DNA from: Escherichia coli
GTDB taxonomy: Bacteria > Pseudomonadota > Gammaproteobacteria > Enterobacterales > Enterobacteriaceae
Direction: 5' to 3' (one strand)
Length of the DNA stretch: 64,000 nucleotides
NCBI RefSeq assembly: GCF_013122565.1
Contig: NZ_CP053258.1
Shown piece by piece: positions 16,135 through 20,750 of the stretch. The position numbers were made by a program, and so were the translations under genes. The notes below the pieces were generated by a model that was not told the origin of the DNA, made no database searches, and saw only the letters and a list, made by a program, of their open reading frames with translations. Every line of letters starts with the position of its first letter. Position 1 is the stretch's first letter.

Positions 16135-17622
16135 TCAGGCCTCCAGGCTTATCCAGATGGTTTTCAGTTCAGTGAATTTTTCAAGGGCATGCAGGGATTT
16201 GTCTCGACCGTTGCCGCTCTGCTTATAGCCGCCAAACGGCACGGTCATATCGCCATCGTTATAGTTATTGACGAAGACGGAACCGGCTTTCAGGCGACGG
16301 CTCATACGGTGGGCGCGGGAGAGATCGCGCGTCCACACCGCCGCGCCGAGGCCATACTGGCTGTCATTGGCAAGCTGTAGCGCCTGATCTTCTGATGTGA
16401 AACGGGTGACCACCAGCACCGGGCCGAAAATCTCTTCGCGGCTTAAGGACGCATTCGGGTCCACATCCACAAAGATGGTCGGGCCAATGGCCGCCGCCAG
16501 CCCGGCGTTACGACCATCCAGCAGCAGTTGCCCTTTGCCTTCGCCTTCACGAATAAAGCCATGCACCGAGTCAGCATGAGCGCTGTCGATTAAGGTGCCC
16601 ATGGTGGTTGCGGGGTCGAGCGGATGCCCCGGCTGCCAGTTTTGCGCCTGCTGTTTTAACAGGGCTAAGAATTCATCGGCGATGCTCTCTTCCAGCAACA
16701 GGCGCGTTCCGGCGATACACACCTGCCCCTGGTTGTAGAAAATGCCCGCTGCGGTGGCGCTCGCCGCTTTTTGAAGATCCGGGCAGTCGGCAAAAACGAT
16801 GTTGGCGCTTTTGCCACCGGCTTCCAGCCAGACGCGTTTCATGTTGCTGTCGCCTGCGTCTTTCAGCAGCTGTTTCCCGGTACGGGTCGAGCCGGTGAAG
16901 GCGATAACATCGATATCGCCATGGCATGACAGCGCCTGTCCCGCTTCATGACCAAAACCCGTCACCACGTTCAACACACCATCCGGCAAGCCTGCTTCTT
17001 TCGCCAGCCCAGCGAGACGTATCGCACTGAGCGGTGATTTTTCAGACGGTTTCAGGACAACGCTGTTCCCTGCCGCCAGCGCCGGGCCAAGCTTCCAGCA
17101 GGTCAGCAGCAGCGGGAAGTTCCACGGTACTATGGCGGCAATCACGCCGACCGGTTCACGCACGATCATCGCCAGCTCATGGCTACTGGTGGTCGCCACT
17201 TCGCCATACACTTTGTCGATTGCTTCGGCGTACCAGCGAATGGCGCGCGCCGCGCCGGGTATATCATCACGAAGGCTGTGACGAATCGGTTTGCCGGTGT
17301 CGAGGGTTTCCAGCAGCGCCAGTTCTTCGGCGTGGGCTTCCATTAAATCGGCGAGTTTATTCAGCACCGCTTTACGTTTTGCCGGGGCAGCCTGCGACCA
17401 GTCGCCGCGTTCAAATACGCCGTGTGCTGCGCTCACCGCACGGTCGATATCGACGCTCTTGCCGCGCGCAATATTCGCCAGCGGTGCCTGGGTGACCGGA
17501 TCAACGGTTTCAAAGGTTTCATTTTCCGCCGCAGCAGTATATTCACCGTTAATAAATAAGCGGGTTTCAATGGCGAGACTTAACGCTTTATCCTGCCAGT
17601 AAGCCAGATGATGAAAATTCAT
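16135..17622 (-). CDS. puuC: gamma-glutamyl-gamma-aminobutyraldehyde dehydrogenase
   Basis: Track ORF trimmed to MNFHHLAYWQDK (495 aa); aldehyde dehydrogenase family. Confidence 0.9.
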   Translation of the reverse strand: MNFHHLAYWQDKALSLAIETRLFINGEYTAAAENETFETVDPVTQAPLANIARGKSVDIDRAVSAAHGVFERGDWSQAAPAKRKAVLNKLADLMEAHAEELALLETLDTGKPIRHSLRDDIPGAARAIRWYAEAIDKVYGEVATTSSHELAMIVREPVGVIAAIVPWNFPLLLTCWKLGPALAAGNSVVLKPSEKSPLSAIRLAGLAKEAGLPDGVLNVVTGFGHEAGQALSCHGDIDVIAFTGSTRTGKQLLKDAGDSNMKRVWLEAGGKSANIVFADCPDLQKAASATAAGIFYNQGQVCIAGTRLLLEESIADEFLALLKQQAQNWQPGHPLDPATTMGTLIDSAHADSVHGFIREGEGKGQLLLDGRNAGLAAAIGPTIFVDVDPNASLSREEIFGPVLVVTRFTSEDQALQLANDSQYGLGAAVWTRDLSRAHRMSRRLKAGSVFVNNYNDGDMTVPFGGYKQSGNGRDKSLHALEKFTELKTIWISLEA

Positions 17623-17771
17623 TATGACTCCTGTTTCACGTCTATCAGATATATGCAGTTTGTGAACGTCAGGGCGCAGAGATCCCCGGGCCGTATGCCC
17701 GTTTATTTCTGGCGACATTCTTTATGGATTGCCGGGCGCATTGCGCTTACCCGGCTTACAGAACAAAAAGA

Positions 17772-18329
17772 TTAAAACGTGGTGGGCGTATGGGCGCTGA
17801 TAATTCGGCAAATACCTGCCGACGTATTACTGAAACTGTGCGGGATGCCGGTATTAATGGCATAACTTTGCCCCGCGACGAGATGATAATCCTGACCATT
17901 AATCGTCAGAACAATTTCACCTTCCAGTACAGTGCCTATTTCCTCACCCTGATGCTTAATTCTTTCCCCGGTGGTTGTGCCAGGCTGGTAAGTTTCAAAG
18001 ATCATCGCCAGCGTGCGATTCGGGTTACCGTTATGAACCAGCTTCATTGACACACCCTGACTGCCCATCTCAATTAAATCGTCCTGATTAATGACGACCT
18101 GCGGCTCATCAGGTTTTTCCGGCTCGGAAAAGAATTCCGAGAGTGACAGACCATACACCTTCAGCAGCTTTTGCAGCGTACTGATGGCAGGGCTGACTTT
18201 ATCTTGTTCTATCGTACTGATAGCACTGTGAGTCAGCCCGGAGAGTTCGGCGGCACGACGTTGTGAAAGCCCCTGCTGCTGGCGGATTTCCGACAAGCGT
18301 TTTCCTGGCGCCAGTCCCTCATCACTCAT
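17772..18329 (-). CDS. puuR: HTH-XRE/cupin repressor of puu genes
   Basis: 185-aa ORF; N-terminal HTH, C-terminal cupin. Confidence 0.95.
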   Translation of the reverse strand: MSDEGLAPGKRLSEIRQQQGLSQRRAAELSGLTHSAISTIEQDKVSPAISTLQKLLKVYGLSLSEFFSEPEKPDEPQVVINQDDLIEMGSQGVSMKLVHNGNPNRTLAMIFETYQPGTTTGERIKHQGEEIGTVLEGEIVLTINGQDYHLVAGQSYAINTGIPHSFSNTSAGICRIISAHTPTTF

Positions 18330-18355: not shown

Positions 18356-19120
18356 TCAGAGTCGCTGTTTTTCAGCGATATGGTGCTGACAAGCGGTGAT
18401 AAAGCCCTCGAACAATATACGCGAAAGCGCGTACTCGCTACTGTTCCATTCCGGGTGCCACTGTACGCCCAGCGCAAAAGGATGATTGATGACGCTCACC
18501 GCCTCAACTAAGCCATCCGGCGAGCGAGCTTCAACACGCAACCGTGGGCTAACGACCTTCGCCCCTTGTCCATGCAGAGAGTTTACCCAAAAGTTGCTAC
18601 ATTCAGGTAACAACGCAGACAGCAATCCCCCCTCTTCAACCTGAACTTCATGCGACGGTGCATATTGCTGTTCCACCGGCAGTTCGGGATCTTCCCGATG
18701 TTCCAGCAATTCAGGCTGTTCGCACAGCTTGCGATGCAACGAACCACCGGTTGCCACCACCAGTTCCTGTAAACCCCGGCAGATGGCGAAAATGGGGATG
18801 CGCCTTTCGAGTGCGGCATTAATTAACGCCATGCTCAGAAGATCACGCCCGGGATCGGCGTCAGGCTCATCGCCGTTTTCACCATATAGGTGCGGCTGCA
18901 CATTGCTGGGACTACCAGGAAGATAAATACCATCGAGTTTCGGCAAAAGTTGTTCAAGTAATGACGGTTCCGCCAGCGCATGTGGCAGCGCAATCGGCAA
19001 ACCGCCCGCGTGGATGATGGCATTCAGGTACTTTTCTTGCAGAGTCTGGGTCGTATGACCCTTAAGCCTGTTCCTGCACATTACGACACCGATAACCGGA
19101 TTGTTCATTATATTTTCCAT
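18356..19120 (-). CDS. puuD: gamma-glutamyl-GABA hydrolase (class-I glutamine amidotransferase)
   Basis: Track ORF trimmed to MENIMNNPVIG (254 aa); catalytic Cys in AICRG. Confidence 0.9.
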   Translation of the reverse strand: MENIMNNPVIGVVMCRNRLKGHTTQTLQEKYLNAIIHAGGLPIALPHALAEPSLLEQLLPKLDGIYLPGSPSNVQPHLYGENGDEPDADPGRDLLSMALINAALERRIPIFAICRGLQELVVATGGSLHRKLCEQPELLEHREDPELPVEQQYAPSHEVQVEEGGLLSALLPECSNFWVNSLHGQGAKVVSPRLRVEARSPDGLVEAVSVINHPFALGVQWHPEWNSSEYALSRILFEGFITACQHHIAEKQRL

Positions 19121-19331
19121 GCTCAATCTCACAAAGTGGACTAAATTATCGCCATTACTGCGCTTTAAATGACCTTTATGTTCAATATTTTTTCAATCTA
19201 GCAGTGGGTTTTCATTTTTGCAAACTCAATTTAACATTTGACAAACATTTAGTTTGCATACAGATTCGAATGGTGGTCATTATATTTTACGCTTTGATAA
19301 CGAGCGGAAAACAAACCAAAGGCGAAGAATC
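19121..19331. promoter_or_regulatory. puuD/puuA divergent control region with candidate PuuR operators
   Basis: AT-rich spacer with related elements ATGTTCAATATTTTTTCAAT and TGGTCATTATATTTTACGC. Confidence 0.5.
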
Positions 19332-20750
19332 ATGGAAACCAATATCGTTGAAGTAGAGAACTTTGTTCAGCAGTCAGAAGAGAGGCGGGGTAGCGCCTTT
19401 ACGCAGGAAGTGAAACGCTACCTGGAGCGCTACCCGAATACGCAATATGTTGATGTTTTACTTACCGATTTGAATGGTTGTTTTCGTGGAAAACGTATCC
19501 CTGTTTCAAGCCTGAAGAAGTTGGAGAAAGGGTGTTATTTCCCGGCCTCGGTGTTTGCAATGGATATTCTGGGCAACGTAGTAGAAGAAGCTGGCCTGGG
19601 TCAGGAAATGGGTGAGCCGGATCGTACCTGTGTCCCTGTTCTTGGTTCCTTAACCCCTTCTGCCGCCGATCCAGAGTTTATCGGTCAGATGCTCCTGACC
19701 ATGGTCGATGAAGATGGCGCTCCCTTTGACGTTGAGCCGCGGAACGTTCTTAACCGCCTGTGGCAGCAGCTGCGCCAGCGCGGATTGTTCCCGGTCGTAG
19801 CGGTAGAGCTGGAGTTCTATTTACTGGATCGTCAGCGCGACGCTGAAGGGTATCTGCAGCCGCCCTGCGCGCCCGGCACCGATGACCGCAATACACAAAG
19901 CCAGGTTTACTCGGTTGATAACCTCAACCACTTCGCCGATGTGCTCAATGATATTGATGAACTGGCGCAGTTACAGTTAATTCCCGCCGACGGTGCGGTC
20001 GCCGAAGCCTCGCCGGGTCAGTTTGAAATCAATCTTTACCATACCGATAACGTGCTGGAAGCCTGCGATGATGCGCTGGCACTAAAACGCCTGGTGCGTC
20101 TGATGGCAGAAAAGCATAAGATGCACGCCACTTTTATGGCGAAGCCGTATGAAGAGCACGCGGGCAGCGGGATGCATATCCATATCAGTATGCAAAATAA
20201 TCGTGGCGAGAACGTGCTTTCTGACGCGGAAGGCGAAGATTCGCCGCTGCTGAAAAAAATGCTCGCCGGAATGATCGATCTGATGCCGTCATCAATGGCG
20301 TTGCTGGCACCAAACGTGAACTCGTATCGCCGCTTCCAGCCGGGGATGTATGTACCGACGCAGGCGTCGTGGGGCCATAACAACCGCACCGTCGCCCTGC
20401 GTATTCCATGCGGCGATCGCCATAATCACCGCGTGGAATATCGCGTGGCGGGTGCCGATGCCAACCCATATCTGGTGATGGCAGCGATTTTTGCCGGTAT
20501 TTTGCACGGTCTTGATAACGAGCTGCCGTTGCAGGAAGAAGTCGAAGGCAACGGGCTGGAACAGGATGGCTTACCCTTCCCGATTCGCCAGAGCGATGCC
20601 CTGGGTGAGTTTATCGAGAATGATCACCTGCGCCGCTATTTAGGCGAACGGTTTTGCCATGTCTATCACGCCTGTAAAAATGATGAGCTGTTGCAGTTTG
20701 AGCGCCTCATCACAGAAACAGAAATTGAGTGGATGTTGAAAAACGCATAG
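19332..20750 (+). CDS. puuA: glutamate-putrescine ligase (glutamine-synthetase family)
   Basis: Track ORF trimmed to METNIVEVENF (472 aa). Confidence 0.95.
   Translation: METNIVEVENFVQQSEERRGSAFTQEVKRYLERYPNTQYVDVLLTDLNGCFRGKRIPVSSLKKLEKGCYFPASVFAMDILGNVVEEAGLGQEMGEPDRTCVPVLGSLTPSAADPEFIGQMLLTMVDEDGAPFDVEPRNVLNRLWQQLRQRGLFPVVAVELEFYLLDRQRDAEGYLQPPCAPGTDDRNTQSQVYSVDNLNHFADVLNDIDELAQLQLIPADGAVAEASPGQFEINLYHTDNVLEACDDALALKRLVRLMAEKHKMHATFMAKPYEEHAGSGMHIHISMQNNRGENVLSDAEGEDSPLLKKMLAGMIDLMPSSMALLAPNVNSYRRFQPGMYVPTQASWGHNNRTVALRIPCGDRHNHRVEYRVAGADANPYLVMAAIFAGILHGLDNELPLQEEVEGNGLEQDGLPFPIRQSDALGEFIENDHLRRYLGERFCHVYHACKNDELLQFERLITETEIEWMLKNA

Follow-up and report, generated by a model that had tools for sequence, protein, structure and literature searches.

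Four probable PuuR operators in the conserved puuD/puuA divergent spacer of Escherichia coli

The binding of the repressor PuuR to DNA and its release by putrescine were reportedly described in Escherichia coli K-12 by Nemoto et al. in 2012 (J Bacteriol 194:3437), a study that is also said to have mapped the control region experimentally and to have given a 15-bp PuuR consensus, AAAATATAATGAACA; a full-text literature search for this consensus returned no match, and the supplement of a putrescine biosensor paper holds no box sequences. Later papers that cite Nemoto 2012 place PuuR binding in the puuA-puuD spacer and count four DNA-binding motifs there (PMC9951944), describe repression of both puuAP and puuDRCBE (PMC9397018), and have PuuR dissociating from its site when putrescine is sensed (PMC7901475). 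Repression of a PpuuD reporter by PuuR is 36-fold (full-length) versus 6.9-fold (truncated) (PMC9951944).

XRE-cupin factors act as dimers on palindromic motifs situated within the core promoters of genes nearby (PMC7901475), and the Pseudomonas repressors PauR, PsdR and ErfA have the same domain architecture as PuuR. These repressors bind palindromic boxes as dimers; as with PuuR, their sites fall in the core promoter of divergent metabolic genes next to them, an effector releases them and autoregulation is probable, and PauR also governs the gamma-glutamylation polyamine pathway (PMC7901475). Members of the family differ in box sequence (PMC7901475) and in how widely their sites are spread: the targets of PauR are many and dispersed, but in the window analysed here the PuuR-type box is found in one spacer only.

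The same spacer and the same two promoters are also regulated by ArcA, through one of its multi-direct-repeat sites (PMC3798270). Park 2013 reported an ArcA ChIP-seq peak 'puuD/puuA', with the site occupying -70 to -28 relative to the mapped puuD transcription start site (TSS) (PMC3798270, Table S4/S6), and listed puuA with 'no experimentally confirmed TSS'; ArcA represses puuA and puuDR (PMC3798270). FNR sites as well as ArcA sites have been reported in the spacer (PMC9397018).

Here, we describe the puuD/puuA spacer in a 64-kb window (the whole stretch of E. coli DNA that was analysed). From the literature we take PuuR binding to the spacer, the four motifs and putrescine release; to these we add the repeats themselves, their statistics, their conservation, and their position relative to the published puuD start and ArcA site. 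The box array very probably represents PuuR operators at the puuA/puuD divergon that repress both operons and are released by putrescine, a reading that is already known, so that the finding is correct but ordinary.

Genes were identified by carrying over the annotation of E. coli ES5 and K-12 and by tblastn, giving the cluster order puuE, puuB, puuC, puuR and puuD, followed by the divergent puuA, ymjE and puuP. The putrescine-responsive HTH(XRE)-cupin repressor gene puuR (17772-18329, minus strand) is the second gene of the puuDR transcript, and its product, 100% identical to annotated PuuR, carries the Pfam domains HTH_3 (residues 13-66) and Cupin_2 (residues 111-178); an earlier first-pass annotation, made from the sequence alone, had rightly placed an HTH-cupin PuuR nearby. 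On the same strand, puuD (18356-19120; Pfam Peptidase_C26) encodes gamma-glutamyl-GABA hydrolase, and puuA (19332-20750, plus strand; Pfam Gln-synt_C), which heads puuA-ymjE-puuP, encodes glutamate-putrescine ligase. With the puuD start codon at 19120 and the puuA start at 19332, the spacer is exactly 19121-19331 (211 bp), as had been proposed, and its GC content is 34% versus 51% for the window.

The puu region shares 95-99% DNA identity with 4,373 E. coli genomes, and positions 19081-19371 match K-12 MG1655 (NC_000913.3) at 291 of 291 bases. Because the spacer is 100% identical to that of K-12, the K-12 experiments apply directly: Nemoto 2012 dealt with this very locus in a different E. coli strain, with the same genes, the same regulator, four motifs and no detectable difference. 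A longer interval of 417 bp (19055-19471), which takes in the spacer and the initial codons of puuD and puuA, has zero differences from K-12 MG1655; the flanking puu coding DNA is approximately 2-5% different from K-12 (14 of 451 positions in puuA codons, and 95.5% identity across puuC-puuE), and in E. coli E69 about 10 positions of the spacer are different. This K-12-identical patch could reflect strong constraint or could be a recombination patch. Elsewhere in the cluster, approximately 125 bp of the K-12 puuR-puuC intergenic region are missing here (132 alignment differences in the 500-bp bin at window positions 17500-17999), and the extra K-12 segment may be an inserted repeat element.

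Two related, AT-rich elements of roughly 20 nt had been proposed in the spacer as repeated PuuR sites, and both are present on the plus strand, ATGTTCAATATTTTTTCAAT at 19178-19197 and TGGTCATTATATTTTACGC at 19274-19292. An independent repeat search identified them as members of a three-copy family of 19-nt direct repeats starting at 19102, 19179 and 19274. The reference copy (19102-19120, TGTTCATTATATTTTCCAT) straddles the puuD start codon, the second (19179-19197, TGTTCAATATTTTTTCAAT) lies inside the first of the proposed elements, and the third (19274-19292) is the other element itself. The two elements are identical at 12 of 15 core positions, and each is more similar to the copy at 19102-19120.

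Taken as 20-bp units without strand, there are four boxes. Box 1 (TTGTTCATTATATTTTCCAT, 19101-19120) is the strongest copy, overlapping the puuD ATG and codons 1-7 at +70 to +89 of the puuD transcript. Box 2 (GTGGACTAAATTATCGCCAT, 19136-19155), a weaker copy and a probable PuuR box, is at +35 to +54 of the same transcript. Box 3 (ATGTTCAATATTTTTTCAAT, 19178-19197), the first of the two elements proposed earlier, spans the -10 and start region of the puuD promoter (-8 to +12 of the mapped TSS), and box 4 (GTGGTCATTATATTTTACGC, 19273-19292) contains the second. On the K-12 chromosome (NC_000913.3), boxes 1 to 4 correspond to 1361120-1361139, 1361085-1361104, 1361043-1361062 and 1360948-1360967, respectively. 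Assignment of these elements to PuuR agrees with the box match, the conservation, the TSS positions and the literature; it is the count that needed correction from two to four, because the first-pass annotation had overlooked both the weaker box 2 and box 1, which lies mostly in puuD codons 1-7 and so beyond the spacer. The 15-bp consensus credited to Nemoto 2012, AAAATATAATGAACA, is the exact reverse complement of box 1, with one difference from box 4 and two from box 3. 'AT-rich' is also better replaced by a more exact description, in that each box appears to be an imperfect 20-bp dyad of the form nTGKnCAWTATATTnnCCAn. The symmetry is modest, with only 5 of 10 pairs in each E. coli box; orthologous boxes are more symmetric (e.g. 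ATGGGCAATATATTTGACAA), and the two orientations score alike with the symmetric weight matrix (PWM) that was built from orthologous boxes.

Low-complexity A/T-rich DNA easily yields similar 15-20-mers, and the two originally proposed elements on their own have only 12 of 20 positions in common, such that their similarity might be attributed to chance in a spacer of this composition. Against this, the third copy has an identical core, and the 15-mer TGTTCATTATATTTT is found with at most two mismatches only at boxes 1, 3 and 4 in the 64 kb (box 1 having 0 mismatches); with at most three mismatches there are 7 matches in the 64 kb versus 1.97 expected, a count reached in 0 of 100 dinucleotide-preserving shuffles. 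The box positions are, in addition, conserved in at least 23 genera. Together, the shuffles and the positional conservation exclude chance, to which we would assign a vanishingly small probability.

In a PWM scan of the window, boxes 1, 3 and 4 rank first at 17-20 bits (taken singly, box 1, the top of the window, at 19-23, box 3 at 17 and box 4 at 18-19), and the next unrelated locus scores approximately 11 bits. Box 2, at 8.8 bits, is the best remaining site in the spacer, a score reached in about 2% of shuffles of the rest of the spacer, and it raises the number of boxes to the published four; it is weak in E. coli, and a function in the leader could partly explain its conservation. The regions upstream of puuP, puuC, puuR and puuE in this window contain no PuuR-type box, the best score there being at most 0.8 bits.

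A scan for relatives of PuuA, using one genome per species, returned 80 Enterobacterales loci, approximately 67 of which keep the puuR-puuD<>puuA arrangement, with spacers of 205-222 bp in the Enterobacteriaceae. The first-pass annotation had named alignment across Enterobacteriaceae as a check on its two elements, and PuuR footprints elsewhere in the spacer together with lack of conservation as what would count against them; with regard to conservation, the elements hold up. Across 23 genera the spacer alignment consists of conserved islands alternating with variable segments, and both elements are among its best-conserved blocks, with mean column identities of 0.90 for box 3 and 0.91 for box 4 (0.86 for box 1, 0.85 for box 2, and 0.54-0.62 between the blocks). 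Thirteen of the 20 columns of box 1 and 10 of the 20 of box 4 are invariant in the 23 genera. Part of this conservation is common to other functions, the puuD -10 in the case of box 3 and coding sequence in the case of box 1. The N-terminus of puuD varies between genera (MENIMNN vs MGNIFDK), yet 13 of 20 box 1 positions (alignment columns 21-40) are invariant, and the DNA motif appears more constrained here than the encoded peptide.

Among the 67 loci, the density of sites scoring 9 bits or more is 9.75 per kb in the spacers and 0.051 per kb in the flanks (469 kb of DNA), an approximately 190-fold difference. Four boxes at matching places, about 35, 42 and 95 bp apart, are found in Pluralibacter, Hafnia, Franconibacter, Erwinia and Serratia plymuthica, and two or three boxes exceed the threshold at other Serratia and Chimaeribacter loci; an equivalent of box 2 scoring 9-12 bits is found at the corresponding position in Pluralibacter, Hafnia, Franconibacter, Erwinia, Serratia and Chimaeribacter. 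The distance from box 3 to box 4 is 95 bp in every genus examined, and all lineages examined have the array together with puuR. Wherever the puuR-puuD<>puuA synteny exists, boxes 3 and 4 keep their sequence, position and spacing.

Serratia species also carry a second locus, lacking puuD, where genes for paralogues of PuuR (83-86% identity) and PuuA directly adjoin each other in divergent orientation. The paralogous spacer is approximately 394 bp long and has three or four boxes in 5 of 5 loci checked, spaced about 36, 41 and 96 bp apart where there are four. Separately, an Enterobacteriaceae-type puu locus (PuuA 89%, PuuR 95%, and a 211-bp spacer with boxes) is present in CACSKA010000001.1, which is titled 'Chryseobacterium sp. 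18061'; this assembly is probably mislabelled or contaminated.

The published ArcA data fix the positions of the boxes relative to the promoters. The four-direct-repeat ArcA site, ATGCAAACTAAATGTTTGTCAAATGTTAAATTGAGTTTGCAAA (PMC3798270 Table S4), is matched exactly at 19217-19259 on the minus strand in a highly conserved block, and since this site extends from -70 to -28 of the puuD TSS, puuD transcription starts at approximately 19189. The core of the puuD promoter (19195-19223, minus strand) would then be formed by a -35 hexamer TTGCAA (19223 to 19218) and a -10 hexamer TAGATT (19200 to 19195) separated by a 17-nt spacer, hexamers that we read from the sequence and that are conserved. GATAAT (19150 to 19145) was rejected as the puuD -10, the TSS-relative coordinates of Park 2013 placing the start at about 19189 with TAGATT and TTGCAA as the hexamers. 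For puuA, sequence and conservation together point to a putative promoter at 19238-19266 on the plus strand, with a -35 TTGACA (19238-19243), a 17-nt spacer and a -10 CAGATT (19261-19266), for which a TSS is predicted at approximately 19273 (K-12 1360967); in the 23 genera TTGACA hardly varies, and positions A2 and T6 of the -10 do not vary at all. Box 4 would accordingly lie at about +1 to +20 of the puuA transcript. The ArcA site covers the -35 hexamers of both of these back-to-back promoters. An inverted repeat at 19219-19230/19247-19258 corresponds to the outer repeats of the ArcA site, and was rejected as a separate element because the ArcA site explains it.

A consensus promoter scan gave a sole sigma-70-like match, TTGTGA and TATAAT separated by 16 nt (19134 to 19107, minus strand; 10 of 12 positions). 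It was rejected as a promoter because transcription would begin within puuD; the A/T centre of box 1 supplies its TATAAT, a conserved CTCAC near the match is the puuD ribosome-binding site, and the match is most likely an artefact of the box 1 centre together with the puuD ribosome-binding region.

That the A/T centre of a box scores as a -10 hexamer, and that box 3 overlaps the puuD -10 and TSS just as box 4 overlaps the predicted puuA start, is what would be expected if the elements were promoter parts only – -10-like or UP-like A/T tracts and initiation regions – and owed their likeness to the promoter consensus. We consider this very unlikely. It fails on two counts: a full copy is located 70-89 nt downstream of the TSS, in the puuD coding region, where no promoter is needed, and it is the columns of the non-promoter flanks, TGK.CA and CCA, that vary least. 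The four copies also keep a fixed spacing across genera and at the paralogous locus, and one paper that cites Nemoto 2012 puts four PuuR motifs here (PMC9951944).

No more credible is that the elements are sites for another regulator, such as ArcA (with its TGTTA direct repeats), FNR or a nucleoid protein, notwithstanding the ArcA peak in the spacer, the ArcA repression of puuA and puuDR, the reported FNR and ArcA sites, and the resemblance of the TGTTCA with which boxes 1 and 3 begin to an ArcA half-repeat; we give this explanation scarcely any weight. The ArcA site of Park 2013 maps between boxes 3 and 4, touching neither, and scans of the spacer for FNR-like and CRP-like sites give 3-mismatch matches only, none of them in box 3 or box 4, and it is on these two grounds that the explanation fails. 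The ArcA site is moreover a separate element of direct repeats with 11-bp periodicity, a periodicity that the boxes do not have, and the box array accompanies puuR in every lineage examined.

The reading of the array as PuuR operators suggests how repression would work, although the footprint assigned to each box, the start of puuA transcription and how PuuR on each box would sterically block transcription are inferred. At low putrescine, PuuR dimers would fill the boxes and stop either the binding or the escape of RNA polymerase at both promoters. Boxes 3 and 4 are at classic repressor positions: PuuR on box 3, across the puuD -10 and start point, would block puuD initiation, and PuuR on box 4, at the puuA start point, would block that of puuA, with box 2, in the puuD leader, and box 1, across the start codon, perhaps strengthening repression. 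Both puuA-puuP and puuDRCBE would be covered, puuR itself included. Putrescine bound in the cupin domain would take PuuR off the DNA so that both operons are transcribed, and ArcA, acting on its own four-repeat site between boxes 3 and 4 and over both -35 hexamers, would provide independent anaerobic repression.

From Escherichia to Serratia the intervals between boxes 2 and 3 (42 bp) and between boxes 3 and 4 (95 bp) do not change, and they correspond to nearly 4 and 9 turns of the helix. PuuR dimers at the puuD and puuA starts might touch one another by looping the DNA, enclosing both -35 hexamers and the ArcA site and coupling the repression of the two promoters, with box 1 serving as a second, regulatory code upon the first seven codons of puuD; we regard this elaboration as speculative and rather unlikely.

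That PuuR controls the puuA/puuD divergon belongs to the textbook account of polyamine physiology in E. coli, and putrescine biosensors already make use of it. The by-products of the present comparison are a coordinate map that sets the four boxes beside the two back-to-back promoters and the ArcA site, a predicted start for puuA, which was listed as unmapped in 2013, and evidence that this architecture is conserved across the Enterobacterales.
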